Shown here: piece after piece, positions 3,379-62,264 of the stretch
Numbering within the stretch: the stretch's first letter is position 1
Layout of the letters: each line of letters begins with the position of its first letter
DNA from: Desulfobulbaceae bacterium
Lineage (GTDB): Bacteria; Desulfobacterota; Desulfobulbia; Desulfobulbales; Desulfobulbaceae
Reading direction: 5' to 3'
DNA: 64,000 nt
Assembly (NCBI GenBank): GCA_012744275.1
Contig: JAAYIE010000003.1
Location: 795 to 64,794, forward strand
The notes under the pieces: model-generated
Databases searched by the model: none
The model's input: the letters and a program-made list of their open reading frames with translations, nothing else
Told to the model about the DNA's origin: nothing
Made by a program: the position numbers and the translations under genes

Positions 3379-3392
3379 TTCCCAAAATTCCG

Positions 3393-4346: not shown

Positions 4347-4446
4347 GTGTTCTCCTTCAATTGAATTCCACGATTAGGAAACATCGGCCGAACGCACAGA
4401 TACAAACAAGGCCGACCAAGCTTCCCAGATTCCGGCAGGCTCGCCA

Positions 4447-5673: not shown

Positions 5674-5707
5674 ACGGAGTTCAACCTGTGGTGCACGGCC
5701 AATATAT

Positions 5708-17702: not shown

Positions 17703-17749
17703 AGTTCCAGGTTCAAGCGGCAGTGTGTTACCCAAATTCAAGTCCACAG

Positions 17750-34305: not shown

Positions 34306-34724
34306 TAATCCCAAGTCTCATGCCGGTGGCGGCAATAAGAAGCCAAGACTGGCAGATCAGCCTCTGCCCAGTCTACTGTGTGGAGTTTATCCAGAGGGAG
34401 CCATTGCAAGGCTGCATGCTCGAGTAGGCGGGGCTCTTCGTTATTTAAGGAACAGATAAACGGGTACAAGGTCACCGTAAAGAAAGAATAACTGTGCGTA
34501 GATGGGTTGAGCTGGCTGGTAATGATAGCTTTCACTCCCATCTCTTCATGTATTTCTCGGACAATACATCCTTCAGGAGATTCATCCTGTCGAATCTTTC
34601 CGCCGGGAAACTCCCACTTCAGCGGAAGGGTCATAGTTTCGCTGCGTTGAGCAACAAGTACAAGACCGCCCCGTTCAATGATTGCGCAAGCGACGTGAAT
34701 ATGTGGTCTGGTCTCGTCAGGCAT
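34305..34724 (-). CDS. NUDIX hydrolase (MutT/NudG-like (d)NTP pyrophosphohydrolase)
   Basis: Nudix box GGKIRQDESPEGCIVREIHEEMGV, 139 aa. Confidence 0.85.
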   Translation of the reverse strand: MPDETRPHIHVACAIIERGGLVLVAQRSETMTLPLKWEFPGGKIRQDESPEGCIVREIHEEMGVKAIITSQLNPSTHSYSFFTVTLYPFICSLNNEEPRLLEHAALQWLPLDKLHTVDWAEADLPVLASYCRHRHETWD

Positions 34725-37784: not shown

Positions 37785-38001
37785 GGTGTGTTCCCATACA
37801 CGAACAGCCTGTTCATCAGGCCACAATCAGGGCAATTTCCCTTGACCCGCCTTCGGGCCGCCGGTATCTTTTTGCTGTTGCCAGCGCCTGAAAAAACCGC
37901 GCTGGTCATTGTAATCAGCCTTTCTTTATACCACAGTTTCGCTCCCATGCACAGCCCTGCCCGCCAAAGGCAAGGCCTCAACCCCAGCAGCCTTGCCCTC
38001 C

Positions 38002-39228
38002 ATGCCTGTTTATGAATACACTGCCCTGAACACGGCGGGTAAAACCATCCAGGGCATTGTTGATGCCGATTCGCCTGCGGCTGCCCGCCAGAAAATCCGT
38101 AGTCAGGGTAACTATCCAGTTACAATTGAAGAGACGGCCAGCAAAGCGCGCTTCAGCATCCAAGGCTTTTCTGTGCCCTTTTTCAGAGGGACCAGAATCA
38201 GGCAGCAGGATATCCACCTTATCACCCGTCAGCTTGCCACCATGCTGAGCGCAGGCATTCCCCTGGCCCCGGCCTTGGGCAGCCTGATTGAACAGGGCGA
38301 ACAGCGGGCCCTGAAAACAATACTGGCCCAACTGCGCGAGGCGGTCAATGAAGGGCATGCCTTCAGTAGCGCCCTCAGCAACCATGCCAGGATATTTTCC
38401 CCTCTCTATATCAATATGGTGCGCGCGGGTGAGGCCTCCGGCACCCTGCACCTGGTGCTGGAACAACTGGCGGAATTTGGCGAAGGCCAGCAGGCCCTGC
38501 AGGCCAGGGTGCGCGCCGCTCTGCTCTACCCGGTCTTCATGGCTGTGGTGGGCGTGGTGGTGCTGGCCTTTCTCATCACCTTCATCCTGCCCAGCATCAC
38601 CAGCGTTTTTGAAGGCAGGGAGCAGGCTCTGCCCCTGGCCACCACCCTGCTCATGGGTTTAAGTGGCCTGCTGCGCAGTTACTGGCTGCCGCTCCTGCTG
38701 CTTGTGTTTGCCTGCATTGCCGGGCTGCGTCACTATCGGCACACAGCAGAAGGCGAACGCCTTTGGCACCGCTTGCAACTCTCGCTGCCCTTTATTAGGG
38801 GGCTGATCCGCAAACAGGCTGCGGCCCGTTTTGCCCGCTCGCTGGCCAGCCTTTTGCATTCGGGCGTGCCTCTGGTGGATGCACTGAGCATTGTCAGCAA
38901 CCTGGTGGGTAACGTCCACATTGCCCGCACCGTGCAGGATGCCCGCTTGGAGCTTGAAAAAGGCCAGAGCCTGGCCGCGCACTTTCGGGGCAAGCCGTAC
39001 TTTCCGCCCATGCTGGTGCAGATGATGGCTGTGGGTGAGCAGAGCGGCGAGCTGGACACCATGCTGGCCCGCGCAGCCGACAGCTACGAGCGCGAACTGG
39101 AAAGCAAAATCATGGCACTGACCTCCATGATCGAACCCATGATGATCCTCATCATGGGTGCGGCGGTGGGCTTTATTGTAGTGGCTGTGCTTTTGCCCAT
39201 CTTTGAGATGAATCAGCTCATCAGGTAA
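38002..39228 (+). CDS. gspF: Type II secretion system inner-membrane platform protein GspF
   Basis: MPVYEYTALNTAGK..., two T2SSF repeats, three TM segments. This is the only T2SS gene on the plus strand. Confidence 0.9.
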   Translation: MPVYEYTALNTAGKTIQGIVDADSPAAARQKIRSQGNYPVTIEETASKARFSIQGFSVPFFRGTRIRQQDIHLITRQLATMLSAGIPLAPALGSLIEQGEQRALKTILAQLREAVNEGHAFSSALSNHARIFSPLYINMVRAGEASGTLHLVLEQLAEFGEGQQALQARVRAALLYPVFMAVVGVVVLAFLITFILPSITSVFEGREQALPLATTLLMGLSGLLRSYWLPLLLLVFACIAGLRHYRHTAEGERLWHRLQLSLPFIRGLIRKQAAARFARSLASLLHSGVPLVDALSIVSNLVGNVHIARTVQDARLELEKGQSLAAHFRGKPYFPPMLVQMMAVGEQSGELDTMLARAADSYERELESKIMALTSMIEPMMILIMGAAVGFIVVAVLLPIFEMNQLIR

Positions 39229-40969
39229 CCCGGAAAACCTCCTCAAGCGTGGTAATCCCTGCCCGCACTTTGGCGATGCCGTCATCGCGCAGGGTGCGCA
39301 TCCCCCCGTCCGGCTGGGCCATGGCCTCTTCCTTGATCCTGCCTGCCTCTGAAGTGGTCAAGAGCAAATTCTTGATCGCTGGAGTCAACTGCATCAGCTC
39401 AAAAATACCGATACGCCCCCTATAACCGGTCTGCAGACAGGCGGGGCAGCCACGGCCGCGGTAAAATTGTAATTCAGTACTGGCCTGCATGGGCTGCGTA
39501 GGCAGCCCGGCCAGTTGCAGCAGCTCCGGCGAGGGCTGGTAGGGTTCGCGGCAATCTGGGCAAATGGTACGCACCAGGCGCTGCGCCATGATGGCATGCA
39601 CCGACGAGGCCACCAGAAAGGGCTCCACCCCCATATCGATCAGACGGGTGATGGCGCTGGCCGCGTCATTGGTGTGCAGAGTGGAGAAGACCAGGTGCCC
39701 GGTCAGGGCCGACTGAATGGCAATTTGCGCGGTCTCGCCATCACGGATCTCTCCCACCAGAATCACATCCGGGTCCTGGCGCACAATGGTGCGCAACCCA
39801 CTGGCAAAGCTCAGGCCAATGCGCGCGTTCACCTGCATCTGGCTGATGCCGTTAATCTGGTATTCAATCGGATCTTCAATGGTGATGATGTTGATATCCG
39901 GCGTGTTGAGCGTGTTCAGCGCCGAATACAGGGTAGTGGTTTTGCCGCTGCCCGTGGGCCCGGTCACCAGAATGATGCCGTGCGGCGCAGTAATCAACTG
40001 ACGGAAATGCTGGTAATCGCTCTCGCTTAAACCCAGGGCGCTCAGTGGCAACAGGGTGTTGCTCTTGTCCAAAAGGCGCATCACCACCCGCTCGCCAAAG
40101 GCAGTGGGCAGGGTGGACACACGGATATCCACGTTGCGCTGGGCAATGCGGATTTCAATGCGCCCATCCTGGGGCAGGCGCTTTTCCGCAATATCCATGT
40201 TAGCCATGATCTTGATGCGGCTGATCAGCTTGGCTTGGGCGTGTCGCGGCGGGGTGTACATGTCGTAGAGGATGCCGTCCACCCGTTTTCTGATCTTGAC
40301 CCGGTCGCGGTAGGGTTCGATGTGGATGTCGCTTGCCCCTTCCCGCACTGCCTGTGACAAAACCAGGTTAACCAGCTTGATCACCGGCGTGTCGCTGGTG
40401 TCGTCCAGGAGATCAGCGGTTTCCTCGATGGCGGTGAGGATGCTGGCCGGATCTTCCTCATCCATATCCTGGATGACCTGATCTGCCACCTGGGAGCGGG
40501 TCTGATCGTAGGCCGCATTGATGGCCTTGAAAATCTCCACCTCCGGCGTAAGCACCCAGGCTACACCCTCCCAATCAATAAGGCGCAAGAGATCATCCGC
40601 CTGCTGAAAATAGAGGGGATCTGCCAGGGCCAGGTAGGAATATGCAGGCGTGGCTACTGGCACCATCTTGAATTTTTTCAGGCTGGCAATGCTCAGCTTG
40701 CCGACAAAAAAAGTGCTGATCTCTTCAGGCAGGCGCAGCATGGTGTTCAGGCCGAATTGCTGAGCCAGGGCACTTGCCAGTTGATCCGCGCTGATAAGCC
40801 CTTGCCGCAGCAGGATTTCGCCCAGCCTGCCGCCCTTCTCCGCTTGCACTGCCAGGGCAGCCTGAATCGCCGCCTCATCCAGGCTGCTGATCTTTTGCAA
40901 CAATTCGCCCAATAGGGGAAAACCCGCATTCAGCGGCAAGATAGGTTGTTGGGCTTCGCTTGGCTCCAT
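39221..40969 (-). CDS. gspE: Type II secretion system ATPase GspE
   Basis: T2SSE_N helix pair (RLGEILLRQGLISADQLASALAQQ), Walker A GPTGSGKTTTLY, Asp/His boxes, and tetracysteine CPDC...CPAC. Confidence 0.93.
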   Translation of the reverse strand: MEPSEAQQPILPLNAGFPLLGELLQKISSLDEAAIQAALAVQAEKGGRLGEILLRQGLISADQLASALAQQFGLNTMLRLPEEISTFFVGKLSIASLKKFKMVPVATPAYSYLALADPLYFQQADDLLRLIDWEGVAWVLTPEVEIFKAINAAYDQTRSQVADQVIQDMDEEDPASILTAIEETADLLDDTSDTPVIKLVNLVLSQAVREGASDIHIEPYRDRVKIRKRVDGILYDMYTPPRHAQAKLISRIKIMANMDIAEKRLPQDGRIEIRIAQRNVDIRVSTLPTAFGERVVMRLLDKSNTLLPLSALGLSESDYQHFRQLITAPHGIILVTGPTGSGKTTTLYSALNTLNTPDINIITIEDPIEYQINGISQMQVNARIGLSFASGLRTIVRQDPDVILVGEIRDGETAQIAIQSALTGHLVFSTLHTNDAASAITRLIDMGVEPFLVASSVHAIMAQRLVRTICPDCREPYQPSPELLQLAGLPTQPMQASTELQFYRGRGCPACLQTGYRGRIGIFELMQLTPAIKNLLLTTSEAGRIKEEAMAQPDGGMRTLRDDGIAKVRAGITTLEEVFRVT

Positions 40970-43328: not shown

Positions 43329-44066
43329 CTACTCATCGTTTGCCGGATCTTGCCACGGGACCTCCAGGGGCTGCAGGGCCGCAGCACCGGTGCGCACCGG
43401 CACGCCTCCGGCTGCCTCGGCCTGACTTGGCGGGGCAGATGAGCCGGTGGTGTTGATGCGGCGTCCAGGCAGAGCCTGGGGCACAATGCGGCTGCCCGCT
43501 GCCTCGGCCTGACCTGGCGGTGTAAGCAAGGAGTTTTCTTCAAGCAGGCCTGCTGCTTCGGAAGATGACGGAGCCGAGCCGCTTTCCCGCTCCTTTAACA
43601 GCAAAAGCTCGGGCCCGGTAGTGGTGGCAAGCGTCACCCGACCGCGTTCAATGCGCACGATTTCTGCACCCTGAATCTGATCGCCCAGGCGGTAGATCTG
43701 CTCGCGCTGCTCCGCACCGCTGCGGATAATGGCGCGGGCATCACTGTCATTGCCGGTCACAGTACCAAGCAACTCCAGGGGCCCACTGCTGGTTGCCAAC
43801 TCGCGCAGGCGGAAATCCTCCGCAGGCTGGCCCGGCTGCTTATCAAGGGCAGCATTGAAAATATTATGCGCCAAGATCTGCTGGATGGCAGCCTCGTGGG
43901 TAAAGAGCGCGCCGTTCTCGCCTGCGCCATCCTGTGTGGCACGCTCGGCTGTTCCTCCAAGGCCAAGCACACTATCCACCTTGGCCTGCATCCACTGGTA
44001 GCCAAAGTACACGGCTGCGTAGAGAACAAGAGCTAAAACAGCCAGTTGCAATAGTCTCTTTCTCAT
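43329..44066 (-). CDS. gspC: GspC-like T2SS protein (TM + HR/PilP-like domain, no PDZ seen)
   Basis: N-terminal TM helix and an HR-like segment (LELLGTVTGNDSDARAIIRSGAEQREQIYRLGDQIQGAEIVRIERGRVTL). Located directly upstream of gspD. The Pro/Ala-rich tail has a duplicated QAEAAG. Confidence 0.55.
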   Translation of the reverse strand: MRKRLLQLAVLALVLYAAVYFGYQWMQAKVDSVLGLGGTAERATQDGAGENGALFTHEAAIQQILAHNIFNAALDKQPGQPAEDFRLRELATSSGPLELLGTVTGNDSDARAIIRSGAEQREQIYRLGDQIQGAEIVRIERGRVTLATTTGPELLLLKERESGSAPSSSEAAGLLEENSLLTPPGQAEAAGSRIVPQALPGRRINTTGSSAPPSQAEAAGGVPVRTGAAALQPLEVPWQDPANDE

Positions 44067-45040
44067 GGTGCAGTGCTTTGTTCCTGATTGGGGCTGAGCA
44101 GCGGGGCCGGGTTAACAGGCAGGGCCCCACGCTCGAAGGCCAAGGCCGGATCCTTCAAGCTGCCAGACAGCGACACCGCAAGCGGACCACGTGCTGCCTG
44201 GAGGCGGAAGCCCTGCAAATCCTGCTGATCGCGCACATGCGAGAATAACTCTGGACCGGCCTGCAGCACGCCGCGCACCGCGATGCTGCTGCTAGCCAGT
44301 GGTCTGACAAGCGCTACCTGGCCTGTAAATTCGCCTTTGCCCAGCGGAGAATCCAGTATCCCGTTTTTTAGTATCAGATTTTGGCCCTGTTGCTCCAGCT
44401 TCAGGCTCAAACGAGTAAAGGGCAGTTGCCCATGCCCGAGAACCGGGTTACGCAGGGGAATAACGCCAGCGGCCATCTCGAGCCTGGCCTGTACATCCGC
44501 AGGAGTGCCACTCTGCAGGCCAAGGCGTGCCTCCCCCCTTCCGGAGAGCCTGCCCTGCACTTCTCTGTCCAGCATCTGCTTCAGCCAGGGCAGGGCCGCC
44601 AGGTTAAGGGCATCAAACTCGGTTGCAAGAACAAGATCCTGCTGGCCCTTATCGGTGTGCAGGCTCAGCTTGCCATCGATCACGCCGTCAGCCAGCCCGG
44701 CCGCAAAAGAGCCGCGCCACTCTTGCTTGCGCAGCAGATAGAACCAATCCGGCTGGAGAATAAGGCTGTCTATCTGGACGGGAAGAGCCGACTGGAAGCC
44801 CACATTTCGAGGCCGCGCCTCAAGCTGTGCCAATCGTAAAGCCAGGGGTGGTTCATATTGCACCGCGTCTACCTGCCATTGCCACTGGGGCAGGGTCCGG
44901 TTCAGTACTTTTTCCGGCACCTGCCGGACAAAATCACGCGGAAAGAGCAGCCAGGCAAAAAAGATCAGCAAGGCCAAGATGAAAACACTTGCCCCCAGGC
45001 CAATCAAAGCAAAACGCAGCAATCTGGCCAGGACTTTCAT
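44063..45040 (-). CDS. gspN: GspN-like T2SS protein
   Basis: N-terminal TM helix, about 300 aa periplasmic. Assigned from its position between gspM and gspC and its ATGA coupling to gspC. The assignment rests on context and weak similarity. Confidence 0.5.
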   Translation of the reverse strand: MKVLARLLRFALIGLGASVFILALLIFFAWLLFPRDFVRQVPEKVLNRTLPQWQWQVDAVQYEPPLALRLAQLEARPRNVGFQSALPVQIDSLILQPDWFYLLRKQEWRGSFAAGLADGVIDGKLSLHTDKGQQDLVLATEFDALNLAALPWLKQMLDREVQGRLSGRGEARLGLQSGTPADVQARLEMAAGVIPLRNPVLGHGQLPFTRLSLKLEQQGQNLILKNGILDSPLGKGEFTGQVALVRPLASSSIAVRGVLQAGPELFSHVRDQQDLQGFRLQAARGPLAVSLSGSLKDPALAFERGALPVNPAPLLSPNQEQSTAP

Positions 45041-48366: not shown

Positions 48367-49091
48367 CAGGGCCAACCAGCCAGCCCCAGAAGGCTTGATG
48401 TGCGCTGCGGCCGGGCGCGGATCATTCCCGCCGGGATAAACACCGCTGTTTCATACACCTGACTGTGCCTCTTGTCCGCATCCAGCCAGAACTCAAGACG
48501 GATGCGCACTGCCGCAGGCAGGCTTACCTCCATCTCCCCGCCTGCGCCTGCAACAGCGCTGTAGCGCCAGGCCTCGCCCTGCTCGTTCAGGGCTTCAAAC
48601 TGCACTGCCCGCAGGCCATCGGCCAAGAGAAAAAAACTGTCCTCCACAGCCTCCTCATCGCTGGCTTGGCCCAGCAAAAGCGGCACATCCGTGCGCAAGA
48701 GCTTCAAACGCCTGGCATCCGCCTCCTGTTCAACCCGGTAGCTGATCAGAGCCGGGCCGCGGCACTGCGCCTGCGGATCAAGTACCAGGTGCGCGGTTGA
48801 GGCAAAGGTGAGGCTGTCGGCCTGTTCCTCATCCAGACGCTGGGCCTCGCCCTGACTGGCGCGGAAAGGCAGGGCCGGTTCCGCATAGGCGGCGGCCAAG
48901 TCTTCACTCAGGCGACGCAGGGCGGTCTGGGCCTGCAGATTGGTTTCATCCTGCTGGCCCAGGGCATCAACTACGCGCAGGGATGCACCCAGGGCAGTGG
49001 CCAGCATGGTCATCACCAGGGCCAGCAGGGTCATGGCAATCAGTAGTTCCAGCAGGGTAAACCCGCTCGCGTGCCCGTTCAACCCCTTCAC
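48366..49091 (-). CDS. gspJ: T2SS minor pseudopilin GspJ
   Basis: Prepilin N-terminus ...GHASG|FTLLELLIAMTLLALVMTML. The GTG at 49091 overlaps the gspI stop (GTGA). Confidence 0.7.
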   Translation of the reverse strand: MKGLNGHASGFTLLELLIAMTLLALVMTMLATALGASLRVVDALGQQDETNLQAQTALRRLSEDLAAAYAEPALPFRASQGEAQRLDEEQADSLTFASTAHLVLDPQAQCRGPALISYRVEQEADARRLKLLRTDVPLLLGQASDEEAVEDSFFLLADGLRAVQFEALNEQGEAWRYSAVAGAGGEMEVSLPAAVRIRLEFWLDADKRHSQVYETAVFIPAGMIRARPQRTSSLLGLAGWP

Positions 49092-49555
49092 AGTACAGCC
49101 TCTATTTTCCGCAGCAGCACCGTGCGCACGGTATAAACAAACGGCCTGCCAGAGTTGTCCCACAAGGTCAGCTCAACCAGCTTGAGCCAGCCGCTGCTCC
49201 CGGCCAGGCCGCTTTCTTCCGCAGTCAGCAGACGCACCTGGCTCGACCAGGCAATATCCGGATAGGCAGGCCCGAAATCGCCGCTGGCATCGGTCAGGTC
49301 AGCAAAGTTCTGCAAATTAAATTCCACCAGTTTCTTCTGGGCGAGCATGGCAGCCAAACTGTGAAAACGCGCCTCTGCGGCCCGGTCAATATTGTCCGCC
49401 TGCACCCCAAAAAGGATGATGCAGGTCAGGGCAATCAGACTGATGGCGATCAGCAGCTCAAACAGAGAAAAACCGGAGCTGCCCTGCCCGCGCAAGGGGC
49501 GTATGAGCCGCTGCCCGCGCCTAGCGGAACAGCCCTGCAGTTGCCAGATCAACAT
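49088..49555 (-). CDS. gspI: T2SS minor pseudopilin GspI
   Basis: Prepilin N-terminus ...GQGSSG|FSLFELLIAISLIALT. The start is uncertain: the ATG at 49555 gives a long leader and the TTG at 49495 gives an 8-aa leader. Confidence 0.72.
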   Translation of the reverse strand: MLIWQLQGCSARRGQRLIRPLRGQGSSGFSLFELLIAISLIALTCIILFGVQADNIDRAAEARFHSLAAMLAQKKLVEFNLQNFADLTDASGDFGPAYPDIAWSSQVRLLTAEESGLAGSSGWLKLVELTLWDNSGRPFVYTVRTVLLRKIEAVL

Positions 49556-50114
49556 GACCCTCAACCACTTCAATCCTGTCAAGAAAGGGCGATATGACCA
49601 GGGCAAGCTGGGCCCCATCCTCAGCCGCAAGCGTGATGAACGCTGGTTCTGTATAGCCCTTGCCACTGATGTACAGCCGCGGCGGCTCCTGCTGCCTGCG
49701 CTGGTCTCTATTTTTTGCACGTATGTCCACCAGCTGCACAGTTTGCAGCAGGTGCAGGCTGCGCACCCGCCCGGAGTTTTGAGCAGCCTGGCCAACCTGC
49801 TGTGCTGCTGCTGCAACCGGCTCTGCCACAAGAATATGCGCGTTCTCCTCATAGCGCAGCAGGTACATACGCTGTTCCTGGCGAGCCAGTTGGATAGCTT
49901 GCTGCACAAAACCTATGGTTTTGCGGGCGCTCGTGTGCAGGCTGTCTCCCTGCAAAAAAAACTGCAGTTTAGGCAGGGTAAGTGCGCCAGCAAAGGCGAT
50001 CAGCACCATCACCACCAGCAGTTCCAGCAGGGTAAAACCCGCTGCTCCGGCGTCAGGGCGCGATTCAGAGTACGTCACCACCCTATTGCAGTTCCCAGTT
50101 ATTGACATCCGCAT
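49521..50114 (-). CDS. gspH: T2SS minor pseudopilin GspH
   Basis: Prepilin N-terminus ...DAGAAG|FTLLELLVVMVLIAFAG. The start is uncertain: ATG at 50114 or 50108 inside the gspG 3' end, or GTG at 50081 just after the gspG stop. Confidence 0.7.
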   Translation of the reverse strand: MRMSITGNCNRVVTYSESRPDAGAAGFTLLELLVVMVLIAFAGALTLPKLQFFLQGDSLHTSARKTIGFVQQAIQLARQEQRMYLLRYEENAHILVAEPVAAAAQQVGQAAQNSGRVRSLHLLQTVQLVDIRAKNRDQRRQQEPPRLYISGKGYTEPAFITLAAEDGAQLALVISPFLDRIEVVEGHVDLATAGLFR

Positions 50115-50527
50115 CCTTGCCCTCACCACCAGCCTGATGATCCGCACCATAGGAGATCAGATCAAATTCATCATGCATACCAGGGCTGAGGTACACATAA
50201 TCGGCTCCCCATGGATCCTTGGGCACCCGGCCACGCTCCAGGTAGCCGCCCTGCCGCCATTTGCGGGCTGGCTTGCCCAGGGCGGGCGGCGTCACCAGGG
50301 CCTGCAAACCCTGTTCGGTAGTCGGGTATTGACCGTTGTCCAAGCGGTACAGCTTCAGGGCCTGCTCAATGGCACGAATCTGTACCTCTGCCTTGGTGCG
50401 GCGCGCTTCCTCGGGCCGATCCATAATGCGGGGCGTAATCAGGGCTGCGAGAACACCCAAAATCACCATAACCACCATCAGCTCAATCAGGGTGAAGCCC
50501 TGCTGTGTATTGGGGAAACGCCGCCAT
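50083..50527 (-). other. gspG: GspG major pseudopilin module (cleavage site ...NTQQG|FTLIELMVVMVILGVLAALITPRI...)
   Basis: Canonical GspG sequence (RRTKAEVQIRAIEQALKLYRLDNGQYPTTEQGL...DPWGADYVYLSPG...DLISYGADHQAGGEG). Its own candidate ATG (50527) is one frame off from this body. Confidence 0.88.
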
Positions 50528-53037
50528 ACAGGTGGCCTCCGTACTCTGTGCCGCAAACAATAGACCAGAACAGGCACCAGCATAACCACAGTAAAGACAG
50601 ACAGAGGGCCAAGGCTTAGCGCCAGCCAGCACAAGCCAACCAAAGGCAGGAGCACCAGGCGTGCCAGCCAACGCAGGGCGGCATGCTCGCTAATGCCCCG
50701 CGCCAGGGATGGGGAGAGATGATAATAGGTATCGATCATTATTTGCCCGAAGGCGTTGCTGCTCAACATGGTATCCCTGAATTGTCGCAAAATGGTGACT
50801 GCGGGGTGGTTAATGGTGCCATAGGCAGCGGTAGCGATAAAACAGGCATCCGCGGTTGTAAATTCATACGGGGGACCATAGTAGACCGCGCCATCTGCGG
50901 CAATCGCGTAGGCGCGCACATGGTAGAGCGTGCCTGGGCGCAAGTTGTCCAGTGATGCAGAAAAGCTACCGTACCCGGCGCCATTTGCCGAGGCGCCCCG
51001 TTCGATTGCCTGCTGCTTTAAAAGAGTTTGTCCCAAAAAACTTTGTTCAGCGTGGTCCATGACAGCAGACGCAGTAGTTGAAAACAGGACTCGCGCTTTG
51101 CCCTGAACCGTGTCTTTACCTTCGCGTACAGGATATGCAGAATGGACCACCTGCTCCAATTGTGCCGGTTGCACCGGAATCGATTGGAACTGTGTGCTAT
51201 CCTGGAACACCGGCAGGACAACGCTATCTCCATCATCTTCCTCAGACGGCACACTTGAAGGCAACACCGGGTTTGCCGCCGTACTGAAGACCACCCCGCG
51301 CTGCAAAACCGGGCCAGCCACATCAGGCAGGATTTCACCGCCACTGGCGGCACTGCTGCGGGTTATGCTATGAGGCGGCAGGGTGTGTACCGCACTACTG
51401 CTCATACCGCGCTGGTTGACAAAGGCATCGGTGTTATACACGCTTGCCGCTTCAAAGCGCGCCAGCGCCATGGAACTGCCCTGCCCACGCTCCACCGATC
51501 CCACCACCAGCACATTCCCGGCGGCATCCATGGCAGCGGCATAACCAACACCTTCACCATCACCGAAACTGATGATGCCGACCTTTGGCACTACAACGGG
51601 TGACGCTGTTTCTGTGGGGGCACTGTTGTTGAATACCGGCGGGGGGGGAGCGGCAAGTGCTGCCGGCATAATGAAACTCTCCAGCGCATGGCCAAAACGC
51701 TGCCAAAGCTGGGTAAATGGGGCAAAATGGTGCAGCTGTCCTCTGTCCGCAGTTACAGTAACAACAACTCCTCCGGCGTGGAAATCCGGAGCCTGCCGGG
51801 ACAATGGAGTATAGTTGGTTTCTGCCCGACGTGCCCGCACCGATTTCGGACGCTGTTTTGCCTCGGTGGACAACACCGGATATTTCTTACCGTCTTCCAG
51901 TTGCATCACGGGCAGGCGTAAACCCGGTGCGTCCAGGGAGCCATTTTCCGGCGCATAGGAAGCCAGGAGAAAACGACGCTGCCCGTTTTCGGTGGTAAAG
52001 CCGCTGGCAATAACGCCCCGTTTGTTCACCACCACATCATAGAGCACGTCATCGTCTGGGCTGACCGGGTTGATCACCACACCTGCCCTGCCGAAATCGG
52101 CGTCTGGCGTACCATCGGAAAAAAACCTGAACAGGGCGGTATCCCGTCGGCCAGACACACCTGTCGCGCCTGCCACATAGAGCAAGCCTTCGCTGTCAGC
52201 TGCCAAACGATAGCCTTCGCTTGCCAGCATGGTTCCTGCCGGCAGAGCCACCCCATCTCTACCGAATGAGCTATCCAAAAGCCCGTGGCTATCGAGGCCC
52301 ACCAACATGAGCGAAACCCGGGCTCCATGTCTGAAGGTGCCTGACAGCACCACGCCACCCTGATCCCGCAGAACAATGCCCTCAACCCGGGATTCGTCAC
52401 CAACGCCAATCAGGCTGACCCCGCGCTCACCAAAGGAGCTGTCCAACTCGCCATCCGAGGAGTAGCGCGCCGCCACGGCCACACTACCGCCTGTACCGGC
52501 GATATTGCCCGCCACCACGATCTTGTTATCCGCGGTAACGGCCAAAGCGCTGATCTCGTCATCGCCGCCACTTACCGGGGTGAGCGCGACGCCGTTGCGA
52601 CCGAAATTTTTATCTAGACTACCGTCGGGAAAATAACAGGCCAAGGCAAAATCACGGTTCTGCCCGTTCGAAGCATACCCGCCGGCGATAATGCGACCAT
52701 CAGTCAGAATGCCCAAGGCCATGGCTTCGTCATCACCAAGGGATATCGAGGTAATCAACGCACCTTCGCGGTTAAAGCCGGGGTCAAGACTGCCATCCGG
52801 GTTGAAACGCAGCAAGGAAAAATTATGGGCCTGACCTGGGCTTACCGAACCGGCCACCACGATCTTGCCGTCGGGTTGTATTATGATGGCGTTGGCACTG
52901 TTTTTCATGCCCAGTTCCACCGCAACCCGGCCATCTACGCCGAAGCCAGCATCCAGGTGGGGAGCGCCGTAAAGCTGAACAGCACCCACAAGTACACACA
53001 GCAGGATGCTTGAAAAATAGCGTATCACCTGAAACAT
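50083..53037 (-). CDS. Single 984-aa ORF: signal peptide + delta-60 repeat beta-propeller + FN3-like region + CFI-box-type C-terminal anchor, continuing in frame into a complete GspG major pseudopilin
   Basis: Uninterrupted reading frame in the sequence as given. See the separate entries for its GspG part and the out-of-frame SD/ATG. It may really be two genes separated by a 1-nt frameshift. Confidence 0.8.
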   Translation of the reverse strand: MFQVIRYFSSILLCVLVGAVQLYGAPHLDAGFGVDGRVAVELGMKNSANAIIIQPDGKIVVAGSVSPGQAHNFSLLRFNPDGSLDPGFNREGALITSISLGDDEAMALGILTDGRIIAGGYASNGQNRDFALACYFPDGSLDKNFGRNGVALTPVSGGDDEISALAVTADNKIVVAGNIAGTGGSVAVAARYSSDGELDSSFGERGVSLIGVGDESRVEGIVLRDQGGVVLSGTFRHGARVSLMLVGLDSHGLLDSSFGRDGVALPAGTMLASEGYRLAADSEGLLYVAGATGVSGRRDTALFRFFSDGTPDADFGRAGVVINPVSPDDDVLYDVVVNKRGVIASGFTTENGQRRFLLASYAPENGSLDAPGLRLPVMQLEDGKKYPVLSTEAKQRPKSVRARRAETNYTPLSRQAPDFHAGGVVVTVTADRGQLHHFAPFTQLWQRFGHALESFIMPAALAAPPPPVFNNSAPTETASPVVVPKVGIISFGDGEGVGYAAAMDAAGNVLVVGSVERGQGSSMALARFEAASVYNTDAFVNQRGMSSSAVHTLPPHSITRSSAASGGEILPDVAGPVLQRGVVFSTAANPVLPSSVPSEEDDGDSVVLPVFQDSTQFQSIPVQPAQLEQVVHSAYPVREGKDTVQGKARVLFSTTASAVMDHAEQSFLGQTLLKQQAIERGASANGAGYGSFSASLDNLRPGTLYHVRAYAIAADGAVYYGPPYEFTTADACFIATAAYGTINHPAVTILRQFRDTMLSSNAFGQIMIDTYYHLSPSLARGISEHAALRWLARLVLLPLVGLCWLALSLGPLSVFTVVMLVPVLVYCLRHRVRRPPVWRRFPNTQQGFTLIELMVVMVILGVLAALITPRIMDRPEEARRTKAEVQIRAIEQALKLYRLDNGQYPTTEQGLQALVTPPALGKPARKWRQGGYLERGRVPKDPWGADYVYLSPGMHDEFDLISYGADHQAGGEGKDADVNNWELQ
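50525..50540 (-). promoter_or_regulatory. Shine-Dalgarno GGAGG + 8 nt + ATG, positioned as a gspG start but out of frame with the pseudopilin body
   Basis: The minus strand reads cGGAGGccacctgtATGgcggcgtttCCCCaat. The ATG frame ends after 14 codons at the TGA at 50485-50483. Confidence 0.6.
51940..52960 (-). repeat. Six tandem ~55-60-aa delta-60-type repeats (coding repeats, beta-propeller-like)
   Basis: Recurrent pattern DGSLDxxFGxxGxxxxxxxxxDxxxAlxxxxDGkIvvaGxxxxxxxxdFaLxRxxx, seen six times (e.g. DGSLDPGFNREG, DGSLDKNFGRNG, DGELDSSFGERG, HGLLDSSFGRDG, DGTPDADFGRAG). Confidence 0.7.
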
Positions 53038-53111
53038 ATTTGGGAATAGATCACCTGCCTGCCAGGACGACGGGGCAGCTGAAACGATAAACTGCGGGCA
53101 GCACGCAGAAA

Positions 53112-54179
53112 CTAGCTCTTACCGAAGCTGCACACCGGATACTGGCAAACCTGACAGTTTCGGCAAAAACCACCATGACCGAGTTCAGCAAGTTCTGTCC
53201 TGCCGATTTGCTCGCCGACGAGGATGCGGGGCAGGATCAGATCAAAAACCGTAATGCCATGATACATACCGCAGGCTGGCAACCCTATTACGGGCACCTT
53301 ACCGATACGGCCCACCGCCAGCATAGCTCCCGGCAACACCGGGGTGCCGTAAACCAGCTGCTCCGCGCCGGCTAAAGCGATGCCCAAACGGGTGACATCG
53401 TCCGGATCAACCGACATGCCTCCAGAAGTAATAATCAGATCGGCACCGGCATCCAGACAGGCATGGATTTCAGCAGCAATCTGCTTGGGATCATCCGGTG
53501 CAAAACGCACCTGCATCACCGATGCACCCAAAGCGAGCAACTTTGCCCGCAGCACCTCTTCAAAACGATCTGCAATACAGCCTTTGTACACCTCATTACC
53601 GGTAATCACCAGCCCAGCCGCGGCCTGACGCATCGGCAATACTCGCAGGACTGCCTCACCGCTCTGCTGCGCCGCCGCTACGGCCTCTTCCACCAGAGTG
53701 CGACGAGTCACCAGGGGAATCAGCCGAGTGGCCCCCACCTGCTCGCCCCGGCGCACCGGGGTGTTGGTTTGCAGGGTTGCGCACATGACCTCACCCAGCA
53801 TATTGAAGCGCAGAAGCGCCTCCCGGTTGATTTTGAGTAAACCGTCTATGCTTGCCGTAAAGGCTATTTTCCCTTCGGACGGTTCCGAATCGTAGCTGAT
53901 ACCCTCTCCTGCCAGGGTGCAGGCAAAAATCTGGGCCGCCTCATTTTCGTGCACATCTTCCGGCCCGAGATTGAGCACATAAACATGTTCCTTGCCCAGT
54001 CGACGCAAAACAGCAATGTCTTCCGGGCGAATAATATGTCCCTTTTTAAAGGCGCGGCCCTTGCGCAAATCTTTTACAATCTCAGTAATATCATGCGGCA
54101 GCACCATACCCACCGCTTCTTCGATCGGCACGGTTGCCGCGCTGACCCGTCTGTTTGTGTGCTCTTCAACTGCCGGCAT
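53112..54179 (-). CDS. Molybdopterin-binding (MoCF_BD/MoeA-like) domain protein with C-terminal Cys cluster
   Basis: LIITSGGMSVDPDDVT motif of the MoaB/MogA/MoeA binding fold, and a C-terminal CRNCQVCQYPVC. Confidence 0.72.
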   Translation of the reverse strand: MPAVEEHTNRRVSAATVPIEEAVGMVLPHDITEIVKDLRKGRAFKKGHIIRPEDIAVLRRLGKEHVYVLNLGPEDVHENEAAQIFACTLAGEGISYDSEPSEGKIAFTASIDGLLKINREALLRFNMLGEVMCATLQTNTPVRRGEQVGATRLIPLVTRRTLVEEAVAAAQQSGEAVLRVLPMRQAAAGLVITGNEVYKGCIADRFEEVLRAKLLALGASVMQVRFAPDDPKQIAAEIHACLDAGADLIITSGGMSVDPDDVTRLGIALAGAEQLVYGTPVLPGAMLAVGRIGKVPVIGLPACGMYHGITVFDLILPRILVGEQIGRTELAELGHGGFCRNCQVCQYPVCSFGKS

Positions 54180-54547
54180 TACAAGTATTCTCCCAATCTA
54201 CTCACTACGTTTACAGAAAGTTTTCACAGATCGTCTGCCCTTTTTCACACCACAGCTATACCACATTTGCGCGCAAATACATTGCAAAATCATCGGACTG
54301 CAAGCGGGCAATGACTGCTGTCTACAAGCATCGGCGAGAAGGTATACCATAGTGAAAATATTGAAATTTTAGCCATCGCCTTCACCTTGACCAGACAATG
54401 AGCACTTTACTGTTTCGCCTGGCAAGGATAAAATGGGAGCATACAGTTAGTGCTGACACTTGCAGCTGGAATGAAATCTAACCACGGTCGGCAAGACCTA
54501 AAAAACACCGACCACCTTGACCATACCAATACAATAGAGATTACCTA

Positions 54548-59987: not shown

Positions 59988-62264
59988 ATGGTTAGACCTA
60001 GCTCTGCAGATACACGGGCATCAAACAGGAGAACGGTCAAGGACCAGTCAGGTGCCAGTAAACTCAAAATTGGTGAGCTACTGAGCAAGGCAGGTTATAT
60101 CACCTCAGCCCAGTTTGACGAAGCCAAGGCCTTGCAACGTAGAAGCGGCATGCGTATAACCCGGATTTTGTTGGAAAATGGTTCTATTGAGTCGGACACT
60201 GTGCCAAATTTCCTCAGCCGCATGCACAACTTCACCCTGACTAATCTGAATGAAGAAAGTCCTAGCCCAGAGGCGCTGGCTAAGCTCCCCTATGAAACGG
60301 CCAAGCAGTATTTGGCCTTCCCCCTCCGCATCAACGGCAACACCATGCAAATTACCATGGTGGAGCCGACCGATACCCTGGAGGTGGAGAACCTGCAGGA
60401 TTTCCTGGGAATGAGGCTGCAGGTTTGCGTGTCTGGCTACAAAGACATCACCGAAGCCTATAAAAAATATTACGGAATCAGTGAGGAAGAATACCAGCAT
60501 TTCTTCGGTCTGGATACCGAGGCACTTGACGAAGGGCCCAGCATGCTGGAGGTGGATGATTTCGGTGCCCTGGTGGCGGATGCTGCCGAGGAGTTTGAAA
60601 TCGGCCCAGGCGCGGGGGAAGAGACTGGCTTTGAACATTTTTCCGCCTCTGATGCGCCCATTATCAAGTTGGTGAACGGTATTCTGATACAGGCGGTACA
60701 ATCGGGCGTGAGCGATATCCACATTGAGCCCTTTGAAAAGACCATGCAGGTGCGCTATCGCAAAGACGGGTCACTGTTCAAGGCCATGAACCTGCCGCTC
60801 AACATCAAAAACGCCATGGCCGCACGCCTGAAAATTTTGGCTGGCCTCAACATCACCGAGCGGCGTGTACCCCAGGATGGTCGTATCCAGATCCGGGTGG
60901 GTCGCAACAAGGCGGTGGATTTTCGTGTCTCCACCCTGCCGCTCCTCCATGGCGAAGGTATTGTTCTGCGTATTCTAGATAAGGGTTCGCTCAATGTGGA
61001 TCTTACTCAACTGGGCTTTACTCCCGATACCTTTGCCTCACTCAAGCGCTGTTTGCGGCGTCCACAAGGTCTGCTCCTCGTAACCGGGCCAACCGGTTCC
61101 GGTAAAACTGTAACCCTCTACTCCGCCCTTAACTCGCTCAACACCGAAGACATCAAAATTCTCACTGCCGAAGACCCGGTCGAATTCAACTTCAGGGGCA
61201 TCAGCCAGGTCAACGTCAATACCGAAGTAGGTATGACCTTTGCCGCCGCGCTCAGGGCCTTTCTCCGCCAGGATCCGGACATCATCATGGTGGGCGAGAT
61301 CCGCGACATGGAAACCGCTGAAATTGCCATGAAGGCCGCTATGACCGGCCACTTAGTCTTTTCCACCCTGCACACCAACGATTCGCCTGCCACGGTCAGC
61401 CGCATGGTTGATATTGGCATTCCTCCTTATATTCTGGCCTCATCCCTGACCATGGTGCTTTCGCAGCGTCTGGGGCGACGCCTCTGCAAAAAATGTAAAG
61501 CCCTGGCCCAATACGATGACAAGACTCTTTTGGAAGCCGGATTCAAAGAAAACGAGTTAAGCTCACTTAAGCTGTTCAAAGCAAAGGGATGTGGTGAGTG
61601 CAATGGGCTGGGCTACAAGGGCCGGGTTGGTTTCTTCGAATTGATGGAGGTGACCCAGGAGGTAGCCGCTGCTATTCAGGCTGAGGTATCCGAGGAGCAG
61701 CTTCGCAAGGTGGCCATGCAGTCGGGCATGTATACCCTGCGCGAAGCTGCCCTGCAGAAGGCCAGAGAAGGTATCACCAGCCTGGAGGAAGTCCTCAAGC
61801 GCACCGTTGCCCATGAGGAAACCTTGCCTCCCTATCTGGTCAACCCCGATGTCGAAGAATACATGGATGGTGATGTCATTATCCAGGAAGGCAACAAAGA
61901 CAGAGATTTCTTCCGCCTGGTACGCGGTAAGGTGGCTGTCCTTCGCTCCGGCAAAAAAATCGCGGAGATTACTGAGCCTGGCGAATTTTTCGGCGAAATG
62001 GCTACCATTCTGGACGGACCGCGCACCGCCACGGTGGTTGCCATGGGCCGCTGCAGCATCAAACGTTTTCCCGGCGATAAACTCTGGGAAATTATTGCGA
62101 AATACCCGGATATTGCCGCCCCCATCTTCCAGACTATCTCGGAACGGCTCAACAAAACCGGCCACATCATGGTGCAGATTGCAGGTGGTGGCCGTGGCAA
62201 TACTCCTCCAGCCCGACCGATATCACCTCCCCCTGCCCAGCAACAGGCGCAGCAGCAAGCATGA
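59988..62264 (+). CDS. GspE/PilB-family secretion ATPase with N-terminal T2SSE_N (MshEN-like) domain and C-terminal cyclic-nucleotide-binding domain
   Basis: Walker A GPTGSGKTVTLY, Asp box, Walker B ...IIMVGEIRD, His box LVFSTLHTND, tetracysteine CKKC...CGEC. Residues ~615-730 carry the cNMP-binding signature (GEFFGEMATILDGPRTATVVA). Confidence 0.88.
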   Translation: MVRPSSADTRASNRRTVKDQSGASKLKIGELLSKAGYITSAQFDEAKALQRRSGMRITRILLENGSIESDTVPNFLSRMHNFTLTNLNEESPSPEALAKLPYETAKQYLAFPLRINGNTMQITMVEPTDTLEVENLQDFLGMRLQVCVSGYKDITEAYKKYYGISEEEYQHFFGLDTEALDEGPSMLEVDDFGALVADAAEEFEIGPGAGEETGFEHFSASDAPIIKLVNGILIQAVQSGVSDIHIEPFEKTMQVRYRKDGSLFKAMNLPLNIKNAMAARLKILAGLNITERRVPQDGRIQIRVGRNKAVDFRVSTLPLLHGEGIVLRILDKGSLNVDLTQLGFTPDTFASLKRCLRRPQGLLLVTGPTGSGKTVTLYSALNSLNTEDIKILTAEDPVEFNFRGISQVNVNTEVGMTFAAALRAFLRQDPDIIMVGEIRDMETAEIAMKAAMTGHLVFSTLHTNDSPATVSRMVDIGIPPYILASSLTMVLSQRLGRRLCKKCKALAQYDDKTLLEAGFKENELSSLKLFKAKGCGECNGLGYKGRVGFFELMEVTQEVAAAIQAEVSEEQLRKVAMQSGMYTLREAALQKAREGITSLEEVLKRTVAHEETLPPYLVNPDVEEYMDGDVIIQEGNKDRDFFRLVRGKVAVLRSGKKIAEITEPGEFFGEMATILDGPRTATVVAMGRCSIKRFPGDKLWEIIAKYPDIAAPIFQTISERLNKTGHIMVQIAGGGRGNTPPARPISPPPAQQQAQQQA

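Follow-up and report, generated by a model that had tools for sequence, protein, structure and literature searches.

A probably genuine and conserved in-frame fusion of gspG to a membrane-anchored beta-propeller gene in Desulfobulbaceae

Is the gspG gene of this Desulfobulbaceae bacterium damaged, recoded or truly fused to the gene in front of it? In the window, i.e., the whole 64-kb stretch of DNA under analysis, the pseudopilin signature NTQQG/FTLIELMVVMVIL (the slash marks the cleavage site) lies in the frame of a 984-aa ORF, and a GGAGG motif, followed after 8 nt by an ATG, is placed so that this ATG stands one frame off from the G/FTLIELM pseudopilin (Table 1). An earlier note on this DNA had located the GGAGG, the ATG, the run of four C and the TGA closing the frame of that ATG after 14 codons, and all of these coordinates were confirmed. 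Its statement that the pseudopilin is translatable only as a fusion also holds. We assign a probability of roughly 0.8 to the reading that this ORF is a genuine, evolutionarily conserved gene fusion and not a lesion, with GspG being presumably set free by a peptidase. In one Desulfobulbaceae clade, the gene that normally comes immediately before gspG no longer has its own stop codon and now runs in frame into gspG. Its product is a Sec-exported protein with a delta-60 beta-propeller, anchored to the membrane through CFI-box-CTERM.

Table 1. Coordinates of the precursor ORF, its parts and the elements at the fusion junction (positions in the window).
Feature	Position	Strand	Details
Precursor ORF	50083..53037	(-)	984 codons + stop; from the ORF list
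Predicted Sec-type signal peptide	52963..53037	(-)	~aa 1-25, MFQVIRYFSSILLCVLVGAVQLYGA; inferred as signal peptide
Delta-60 repeat/DUF5122 beta-propeller region	52018..52899	(-)	~aa 47-340; approximate boundaries
CFI-box-CTERM domain	50638..50844	(-)	aa 732-800 (CFIATAAYG...LLPLV)
Predicted TM helix	50554..50604	(-)	aa 812-828, LSVFTVVMLVPVLVYCL, outside to inside; from hydropathy
Predicted basic cytoplasmic linker	50497..50553	(-)	aa 829-847, RHRVRRPPVWRRFPNTQQG, ends in Gly(-1)
GGAGG	50536..50540	(-)	In the native frame, part of the CGG AGG (Arg-Arg) codons of the linker
Off-frame ATG and 14-codon ORF	50483..50527	(-)	ATG 50527-50525; MAAFPQYTAGLHPD, then stop; TGA 50485-50483
CCCC run	50512..50515	(-)	Last base of TTC (Phe841) + CCC (Pro842)
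Predicted prepilin-peptidase cut	between 50497 and 50496	(-)	QQG/FTLIELMVVMVILGVLAALI
Mature major pseudopilin GspG	50086..50496	(-)	aa 848-984, 137 residues
Class III signal hydrophobic segment (alpha1N)	50434..50496	(-)	Phe(+1), Glu(+5), FTLIELMVVMVILGVLAALIT

The precursor is ordered as signal peptide, delta-60 beta-propeller repeats, CFI box, transmembrane (TM) segment, basic linker and GspG. The search of the protein collection returned an exact match to the window ORF, the GenBank protein NLZ16254.1 (984 aa), which automated annotation had named "GspG." Profile searches recovered three domain matches in the ORF, namely delta-60/DUF5122 repeats, CFI-box-CTERM and a full-length GspG. The first 28 residues form a hydrophobic segment in the hydropathy profile, and equivalent N-termini are kept in two of the fused relatives described below (L015 and L016). 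The beta-propeller region was matched in four stretches each by TIGR02608 (188 bits) and PF17164 (116 bits), with DGxLDxxFG repeat motifs at aa 138, 195, and 308. The CFI box scored 82.3 bits against NF041770 (cutoff 40) over profile positions 1-69 of 69 and was modeled by AF2 with pLDDT >90. Members of this family end 70-115 aa after the Cys, whereby those without a TM helix stop before the TM segment and those with one add a basic tail; as opposed to their typical placement at the extreme C-terminus, 137 residues of GspG follow the basic tail in the window protein. We found no literature on the CFI box and know of no processing enzyme for it. Downstream of the box, the AF2 model has a helix at model residues 122-140 (aa 811-829 of the fusion), an unstructured linker and a second helix, and the GspG part is of low confidence (pLDDT 50-60). 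The 36 residues up to Gly(-1), linker included, contain 6 Arg/Lys and no Asp/Glu. The hydrophobic block following the CFI box is ~40 aa long, and the single-crossing topology proposed below fails if this block spans the membrane twice.

The pseudopilin module itself is complete. TIGR01710 matched aa 846-982 with 176.6 bits (cutoff 88.85) over positions 1-134 of 134, PF08334 matched with an E-value of 1.3e-41, and PulG (PDB 5wda) aligned from its Phe1 with the 137-aa mature GspG (E-value 7e-36). A class III signal was recognized at aa 843-867 by both PF07963 N_methyl (E-value 2.8e-10) and TIGR02532 (35 bits), and it comprises Gly(-1), Phe(+1) and Glu(+5) together with a ~20-residue hydrophobic helix; it is, however, not N-terminal, starting only at residue 843 of 984. 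The window GspG belongs to a gsp cluster: the fusion is followed on its own strand by gspH, I, J, K, L, M, N, C, D, and E, and gspF is encoded on the other. The fused gene occupies the only gspG position of the operon, and neither a second gspG nor a prepilin peptidase gene was found within the 64-kb window. Elsewhere in the window, all remaining gsp genes and the dcw cluster are intact, thus showing no general indel noise.

The junction is identical in three assemblies of the window strain: the MAG encoding NLZ16254.1, LFRM01 and the Logan assembly of SRR24555993, the latter being 100% identical to the window over 8955 bp. LFRM01 belongs to a bin set from 2016 and was obtained from Illumina HiSeq 2x150 reads (PMC4736482). 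Moreover, a CFI-box upstream protein is fused to GspG in the same frame as in the window in four Desulfobulbaceae MAGs that are GTDB species representatives (L015, L016, L017 and L018) and in a JGI contig (L096). For L015 and L016, the presence of delta-60 repeats, CFI-box-CTERM and GspG was confirmed, and the NF041770 scores in these two and in a further fusion discussed below (P0188) were 83-87 bits. The precursors of the window bacterium and its closest relatives are ~940-1000 residues long. Their upstream parts share 52-76% identity among the fused relatives, with 91% for the close pair L017/L018. The linkers vary in sequence and, by in-frame indels, in length (14-27 aa), but all end in QQG, and they carry 3-9 Lys/Arg and no acidic residues; the other two frames are interrupted by stops in the fused lineages. 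The mature GspG of the window is 85-95% identical to those of the four fused species. All of these keep the complete alpha1N helix together with Gly(-1), Phe(+1) and Glu(+5), which do not vary. Pairwise dN/dS of the mature GspG among the fused lineages was 0.025-0.084 at dS of 0.7-1.7, showing strong purifying selection on GspG in the fused state, with synonymous sites being roughly saturated. The suggestion in the earlier note that a frameshift mutation had fused or inactivated gspG does not agree with a fusion conserved in relatives at such dN/dS values.

The fused lineages are monophyletic in both the upstream-protein tree and the concatenated tree, and their sister lineage (L002/L095) is unfused. 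A CFI-box ORF immediately precedes gspG in 91 of 128 related loci, and in 86 of those 91, it remains a separate gene, with a stop of its own 44-301 nt ahead of the Gly(-1) codon. Unfused Desulfobulbaceae GspG proteins have basic leaders of 13-28 aa.

What, then, is the off-frame ATG? It is the only start at the junction with a Shine-Dalgarno (SD) match, its duplex free energy being -9.5 kcal/mol, a strength reached by only 1.2% of the 2081 ATGs in the window. The combination is less surprising than this raw frequency because the GGAGG consists of Arg codons of an Arg-rich linker and the ATG arises from GTA-TGG (Val-Trp). Most likely, the off-frame SD, ATG and 14-codon ORF are incidental, and the strong pair, present in this lineage alone, is explained only as a by-product of the Arg codons. 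The C run consists of ordinary TTC-CCC (Phe-Pro) codons and is not an indel site: the codons through it are TTC CCC AAT ACA CAG CAG GGC in the window, AAG CCC GGC AAT CAG CAG GGT in L015 and AAG CTC AAT AAA CAG CAG GGC in L016. The off-frame SD and ATG are absent from all four fused species L015-L018. According to the earlier note, relatives with a conserved run of four C, an intact fusion ORF and no conserved SD/ATG would argue against both assembly error and recoding. In substance, this is the pattern observed: the fusion ORF is intact and no SD/ATG is conserved, although the run itself is not conserved either (CCC or CTC). The same note had seen in TTG 50556 the only fusion-frame start before G/F and had found it without an SD. 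The lack of an SD was borne out (none of the fusion-frame starts in the window has a dG better than -2.2), but GTG 50589, ATG 50583, and GTG 50577 are also present in this frame, all three inside the TM segment. Within 150 nt of G/F, the fused clade has no conserved in-frame start or SD, and L016 has only one SD-less TTG there.

The earlier note had also proposed a homopolymer indel in the assembly. With a true run of three C, gspG would start at ATG 50527, the upstream gene would stop at TGA 50489-50487, and a tidy 10-aa leader, MAAFPNTQQG, would follow a strong SD; weak resemblances, such as "AAF" in the P0004 leader and "IHT" in the tail of L008 against "IHS" here, point in the same direction. 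An artefact, however, should show as an irreproducible junction or frameshifted neighbors, and neither was found: the four C recur in three assemblies, at least LFRM01 being from Illumina HiSeq reads, and no other gene in the 64 kb is broken. Since, moreover, no three-C version of the protein exists among ~15 billion sequences and four other species have the same fusion frame with a homologous CCC or CTC codon, we give an assembly error next to no credence. Programmed or tolerated +1 frameshifting, in which ribosomes would initiate at ATG 50527, slip on UUU-CCC-C and so produce MAAFPNTQQG/F-GspG without the upstream protein, is highly improbable, despite a strong SD at 8-nt spacing (dG -9.5) and a slippery site with perfect +1 re-pairing at 50518-50512, where tRNA-Phe could move from UUU to UUC. 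CCC-C is indeed a documented shifty quadruplet, and in E. coli, codon 2 shows ~1% of +1 frameshifting, eightfold more without m1G37 (PMC4519876), but the window site is codon 5, not the most shift-prone codon 2, and an efficiency near 1% would be poor for a major pseudopilin. Neither the shift site nor a 0-frame start is conserved in L015-L018, from which SD, ATG and the four-C run are all missing. There is no stimulatory RNA structure (fold z = 0.06) and no Rfam match, and the SD lies ~20 nt upstream of the site instead of ~3 nt. Furthermore, the 0-frame codon in the A site, CAA, is used regularly (179 times), and in-frame CCC-C is not avoided (57 times in 16.7k window codons). Recoding is also unnecessary since the native frame runs straight through and thereby already offers an in-frame route; the slippage put forward in the earlier note, with no conserved 0-frame start, RNA structure or Rfam element behind it, is not supported.

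Internal initiation in the fusion frame, for instance, at ATG 50583 or TTG 50556 and possibly from an internal promoter, would leave the read-through fusion as a tolerated by-product. In-frame start codons do exist, leaders of 13-28 aa are normal for GspG in Desulfobulbaceae, an in-frame ATG with an SD-like sequence precedes G/F in L175 (see below), and a promoter-like site with 9 of 12 matches lies at 50766-50738. Yet no in-frame start in the window, L015, L016 or L017 has an SD (dG no better than -3.3), and the starts do not keep their positions. In L016, the last 50 codons contain no in-frame ATG or GTG, and the number of promoter-like sites (2, with 1.7 expected) shows no enrichment. As this explanation also leaves unaccounted for an upstream frame that stays open through variable-length linkers in every lineage, we consider it unlikely. 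A real but uncleaved fusion, in which the beta-propeller protein would permanently carry GspG as a C-terminal membrane or pseudopilus-docking module, or another pseudopilin would serve the T2SS, is very unlikely. It is true that cleavage is a prediction and that GspG globular domains are embedded in larger proteins such as P0296, P0275 and P0227. Against this stand the invariant Gly(-1), Phe(+1) and Glu(+5) with the complete alpha1N helix, a GspG scoring as a full-length equivalog, and an operon whose only gspG position is the fused one, with no second gspG in the window; moreover, it is established biology that pseudopilus assembly is incompatible with a tethered pseudopilin N-terminus.

In the preferred reading, a conserved precursor, GspG is presumably cut free by prepilin peptidase. 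In the inserted precursor, the beta-propeller would lie outside, followed by one TM helix and a cytoplasmic basic loop of 14-27 residues, after which the hydrophobic helix of the pseudopilin itself would cross back out. This topology would put the conserved QQG/FTLIELM at the cytoplasmic face, the side on which prepilin peptidase works; the enzyme would release a normal mature GspG, the linker would act as a tethered prepilin leader, and the anchored beta-propeller protein would keep a short cytoplasmic tail after the cut. With the cut at QQG/F, the upstream protein would thus be a tethered leader of ~800 aa made 1:1 with the pseudopilin. Prepilin peptidases are known to cut at the cytoplasmic face behind leaders of variable length (PMC10191384). 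A precedent for prepilin-peptidase cleavage of such a precursor was not found in the literature. That the locus encodes a GspG polyprotein, a two-TM precursor which prepilin peptidase would cut at a class III signal inside its cytoplasmic loop to yield a CFI-box-anchored exported protein and mature GspG in a 1:1 ratio, we regard as an evenly balanced proposition.

Canonical T2SS pseudopilin precursors (PulG/EpsG/XcpT, TIGR01710) have an N-terminal signal behind a leader of roughly 6-8 residues. The window protein resembles them in its 137-aa domain, its G/FTLIE site and the gspH, I, J, and K that follow, but its class III signal is internal (aa 843-867 of 984), and its "leader" is a whole exported, membrane-anchored protein. 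Long-leader pilins (type IVb; major pilins of Streptococcus sanguinis) share the variable leader length, which is not decisive for processing by prepilin peptidase (PMC10191384). Their leaders are, however, soluble, cytoplasmic and tens of residues long, in contrast to the ~800 residues with their own signal peptide and TM helix in the window. The mitochondrial GspG of Naegleria and other eukaryotes (miT2SS) has an N-terminal extension of ~160 aa before the polar anchor and Glu+5 (PMC8134430) and is similar in having an atypically long extension that needs proteolytic removal; unlike the window protein, it is eukaryotic, no GspO accompanies it, and the extension serves for mitochondrial targeting and is no functional extracytoplasmic protein. 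Modular type IV pilins, e.g., PilB of S. sanguinis, are pilin modules covalently joined to another functional domain (PMC8179133). Whereas in these the extra module is C-terminal and stays attached in the filament, the extra protein of the window fusion lies on the N-terminal side of the cleavage site and should be split off. Recoding systems, be it CCC-C +1 frameshifting (tRNA-Pro, m1G37/EF-P) or the prfB type, resemble the locus in a UUU-CCC-C downstream of SD and AUG, but the window site is without conservation, stimulator or need. The T2SS cargo of the GlyGly-CTERM/rhombosortase system consists of exported proteins that end in a sorting motif with a TM helix and basic tail, much like the CFI-box proteins, and is likewise tied to T2SS, genetically or functionally; GlyGly-CTERM proteins are not known to be fused to pseudopilins.

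A second, independent fusion of the same kind but with a different passenger is found in an unrelated operon (P0188/L175), where an S8 peptidase, FN3, a CFI box and GspG are joined in the gspG slot of gspE-F-[fusion]-H-I-J-K. This locus has an in-frame ATG with the SD-like GAAGGGAAGGGG (dG -8.0) 15 codons before G/F, and therefore separate initiation may coexist there with read-through. In the polyprotein reading, the exported protein is a beta-propeller in the window, and in L175 it is a subtilase.

By definition, class III (prepilin) signal peptides are N-terminal, and their leaders are seen as short, disposable peptides. A clade whose only operon-encoded gspG stays fused to an exported, membrane-anchored protein of ~800 residues challenges this view. 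It implies either that prepilin peptidases process a leader tethered by another TM helix or that an unknown route makes the pseudopilin. Frameshift-hunting pipelines would wrongly flag the fusion site. If the polyprotein reading is true, a natural pilin would for the first time have a functional protein of hundreds of residues as its leader, and the uncharacterized CFI-box-CTERM anchor would be tied mechanistically to T2SS. Two uncharacterized elements, the CFI-box-CTERM anchor and the delta-60 repeat protein heading gsp operons, gain a first functional lead from the fusion.

On the minus strand, the earlier note had placed a Shine-Dalgarno (SD) motif, an ATG, a CCCC run (50515-50512), a 14-codon frame and a pseudopilin signature at the start of gspG, and every one of these coordinates matches the sequence. 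The signature indeed lies in the neighbouring frame, that of a long upstream ORF. Domain searches matched three parts of this ORF: repeats of the delta-60/DUF5122 type, the CFI-box-CTERM domain over its whole length (aa 732-800), and GspG, likewise full-length (aa 846-982; TIGR01710 score 177 bits, cutoff 89). The pseudopilin part is a genuine GspG. Of all possible start codons that lie no more than 180 nt from the predicted prepilin-peptidase cut (G↓F, with Gly847 at -1), only the off-frame ATG has an SD match (dG -9.5 kcal/mol); none was found for the in-frame GTG 50589, ATG 50583, GTG 50577 and TTG 50556. The TTG thus lacks an SD, as claimed, and is not the sole in-frame candidate, since the other three are present. 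The GGAGG motif reads CGG AGG in the native frame, the Arg-Arg pair of the basic linker.

Features of the gspG fusion, its relatives and neighbouring window genes
Feature	Source	Coordinates	Strand	Details
GGAGG	window	50540-50536	minus	then 8 nt, then ATG 50527-50525
Off-frame ORF, 14 codons	window	50527 to TGA 50485-50483	minus	ATG GCG GCG TTT CCC CAA TAC ... TGA
Fusion ORF, 984 codons	window	50083..53037	minus	frame of NTQQG↓FTLIELMVVMVIL; linker RHRVRRPPVWRRFPNTQQG↓F; codons at C run TTC CCC AAT ACA CAG CAG GGC
Fused relative L015	JAUNUN010000001.1			linker HRRLHQSGTAKPGNQQG↓F; codons AAG CCC GGC AAT CAG CAG GGT
Fused relative L016	CAZEIT010000014.1			linker LRQAAASKLNKQQG↓F; codons AAG CTC AAT AAA CAG CAG GGC
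Fused relative L017	JABMJC010000108.1			linker RRCRPRALLGSPSLQWQSLRRLRRQQG↓F
Fused relative L018	JAXGZR010000004.1			linker RRRAGTLLGSPSLRRQPLRRLRRQQG↓F
Fused contig L096	JGI metagenome			linker RRRAGTLLGSPSLRRQPLRRLRRQQG↓F
Upstream CFI-box protein	window	50600-53037
Upstream CFI-box protein	L002	1438-3759
Upstream CFI-box protein	L010	1629-3962
P0188, separate fusion	L175 (Logan SRR14663240)	2848-5706		gspG slot of gspE-gspF-[fusion]-gspH-I-J-K operon
gspF	window	37993-39228	plus
gspE	window	39221-40969	minus
GspN and GspC	window	44063-45040 and 43329-44066	minus	TIGR04411 and NF041515
MurE/MurF, 1036 aa	window	18819-21929	minus	dcw cluster
murD and murG	window	16320-17837 and 15232-16332	minus	abutting
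ddl	window	3393-4346
PilB-type ATPase	window	59988-62264	plus	TIGR02538, 737 bits
1045-aa protein	window	31177-34314	minus	PLD-nuclease, ResIII/helicase, DUF3427

Scanning the GTDB species representatives at the DNA level, independently of gene calls, revealed the fused relatives L015-L018, in all four of which the upstream CFI-box protein reads in frame into GspG with no stop. The mature GspG of these four shares 85-95% identity with that of the window, L096 has the same arrangement as L018, and the delta-60 repeats, CFI-box-CTERM and GspG were verified by NCBIfam in L015 and L016. The upstream parts share just 52-76% identity between fused lineages, with the exception of the close pair L017/L018 (91%). 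The linkers vary in sequence and length, all being in frame and ending in QQG, and stops are present in the other two frames; their DNA is too divergent for alignment across lineages, save the last ~20 nt. Comparison of orthologous loci, which the earlier note had proposed as a check on the C-run length and on SD/ATG conservation, showed neither the C4 run nor the SD/ATG to be conserved. The homologous codons are CCC in L015 and CTC in L016, in the fusion frame, and because of this homology the CCCC run is assigned to the native Phe841-Pro842 codons. The fused relatives contain neither the off-frame SD/ATG nor a conserved in-frame start, and in L016 the last 50 codons are free of in-frame ATG and GTG.

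A homopolymer indel in the assembly, one of the explanations offered earlier, is contradicted by the recurrence of the junction in three assemblies. The exact 984-aa product is GenBank NLZ16254.1 from a Desulfobulbaceae MAG (116-kb contig), the 68.7-kb Logan contig of SRR24555993 has the same junction with 100% identity to the window over 8955 bp, and an identical junction is carried by a 440-aa product (P0002) of the WGS set LFRM01, which consists of biogas-reactor bins sequenced on Illumina HiSeq 2x150 (Campanaro et al., 2016; PMC4736482). No version of the fusion protein with one C deleted (C3) was found in a 15-billion-protein collection; the junction pattern, with C3 or C4 allowed, gave 0 exact-pattern matches in JGI metagenome contigs, and no contigs encoding P0002 are on record. 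Moreover, gspH-I-J-K-L-M-N-C-D-E, the opposite-strand gspF, the dcw cluster and the remaining window genes are all intact. Since the junction recurs, no C3 version exists in the collection and the other genes are intact, there is no sign of indel noise. A C3 ancestor with C4 as a fresh insertion was also considered. In the first protein searches, relatives at or below 85% identity had only stand-alone GspG (148-198 aa) with long basic leaders of 13-28 aa, and in the stand-alone genomes a ~775-aa DUF5122/CFI-box protein stops 14-38 nt before the gspG ATG. The idea rested on P0004, an 83%-identical protein whose leader contains 'AAF', and on 'IHT' versus 'IHS' in the tail of the related locus L008; these three-residue matches are coincidence, and the idea was dropped because the closer relatives L015-L018 are fused in the same frame.

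A frameshift lesion that fuses or inactivates gspG does not fit either, since the in-frame fusion is kept in L015-L018 and L096 and GspG, as judged by a dN/dS of 0.025-0.084 (dS 0.7-1.7) for the mature protein among fused lineages, is under strong purifying selection while fused. As for +1 slippage as the route to GspG, CCC-C is a genuine shifty quadruplet, on which +1 frameshifting in E. coli reaches ~1% at codon 2 and is 8-fold higher when m1G37 is missing (PMC4519876), but the candidate site of the window, GGAGGCCACCTGTATGGCGGCGTTTCCCCAAT, is not a recoding site. It is not conserved among relatives, the RNA fold of 50430-50545 is no more stable than shuffles (z = 0.06) and so offers no stimulator, an Rfam scan of 49000-54500 returned sub-threshold noise only, and in-frame CCC-C is not avoided elsewhere (57 times in 16.7k codons of the window). 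Frameshifting is also not needed, because the native frame reads straight through. A promoter scan upstream of the junction revealed no excess of sites. The site is real, but its diagnosis was wrong: the fusion is natural and conserved, and is neither an error nor a lesion nor a recoding site.

Every fused protein begins with a signal peptide; behind the CFI box come a hydrophobic block, a linker with 3-9 Lys/Arg and zero Asp/Glu, and the class III hydrophobic helix. The predicted structure model (AF2, aa 690-984), informative for the helix/linker/helix layout and of low confidence in the GspG part, has a helix at 811-829, then a linker without structure (830-849) and a further helix (850-871); a Foldseek search of the model against the PDB returned nothing significant for the CFI-box domain. 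Many members of the CFI-box family end directly after the first hydrophobic helix with no TM, others adding one TM and a basic tail; because many end there, the first helix (pLDDT >90) is assigned to the CFI-box domain and the second is the putative membrane anchor. This layout would place the basic linker in the cytoplasm, at the position of a prepilin leader, which is cytoplasmic and is cut there by prepilin peptidase (PMC10191384). A cut after Gly847 would yield a normal mature GspG and an anchored beta-propeller protein. Mature GspG aligns from Phe1 with PulG (PDB 5wda). Neither a prepilin peptidase gene nor a second gspG was found within the 64-kb window. GspG would most probably be set free through cleavage by prepilin peptidase.

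With the 269-aa junction as query, a search through 1.84 billion representative proteins retrieved P0188 (952 aa), composed of a signal peptide, S8 subtilase, FN3, CFI-box-CTERM, a TM helix, a basic linker and G↓FTLIEL with GspG. As both the passenger and the operon layout differ, it represents a separate fusion event with the same architecture. In its locus, L175, an SD-like GAAGGGAAGGGG accompanies an in-frame ATG that lies 15 codons before the cut, so that separate initiation may occur beside read-through; no conserved counterpart was found in the clade of the window. Two other long 'GspG' hits, P0237 and P0238, appear to be over-extended ORF calls. P0296, P0275 and P0227, rejected as like cases, have the GspG-like globular domain alone, without class III signal or alpha1N helix, inside larger membrane/lipoprotein-like proteins, and are a different use of the pseudopilin fold.

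In the GspG family the class III signal usually sits at the N-terminus, preceded by a short leader, unlike in the GspG of the window. The closest precedents are pilins with long leaders (tens of residues), modular pilins, whose extra module is C-terminal, and the GspG of mitochondria, which is extended at its N-terminus by ~160 aa (PMC8134430). Literature searches turned up no pilin or pseudopilin that is encoded behind an entire exported protein, no precedent for internal class III signals, prepilin polyproteins or GspG fusions, and no publications on CFI-box-CTERM.

Elsewhere in the window, gspF lies on the strand opposite to the rest of the gsp cluster and converges on gspE with an 8-nt overlap of 3' ends. 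The type II secretion system includes a Leptospira-type GspN, a delta-type GspC and a GspL with a PilN-like C-terminus, and the PilB-type type IV pilus ATPase carries a C-terminal cyclic-nucleotide-binding domain (PF00027, aa 623-706). The single MurE/MurF ORF is naturally fused rather than an artefact, because it matches the bifunctional family NF008896 over its full length (974 bits, just below the cutoff of 1023). No ftsW separates murD from murG, which is unusual for a dcw cluster, and ddl lies apart from the dcw genes. The architecture of the 1045-aa protein looks like restriction or defence.

Neighbour-joining groups the fused lineages in one clade, with the unfused loci L002/L095 as sister, both for the upstream protein and for the concatenation; the short GspG-only tree does not resolve this grouping. 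Among 128 related loci with enough upstream sequence, a CFI-box ORF lies directly upstream of gspG in 91, being fused in 5 of these (6 counting the window) and, in the remaining 86, closed by a stop of its own that lies 44-301 nt ahead of the Gly(-1) codon. Delta-60/DUF5122 repeats were detected by Pfam or NCBIfam in the upstream protein of the loci checked (L002, L010, L015 and L016). Overall, the data demonstrate the fusion and its conservation, and the CFI-box protein resembles a conserved leading member of the Desulfobulbaceae gsp operon, as either cargo or accessory.
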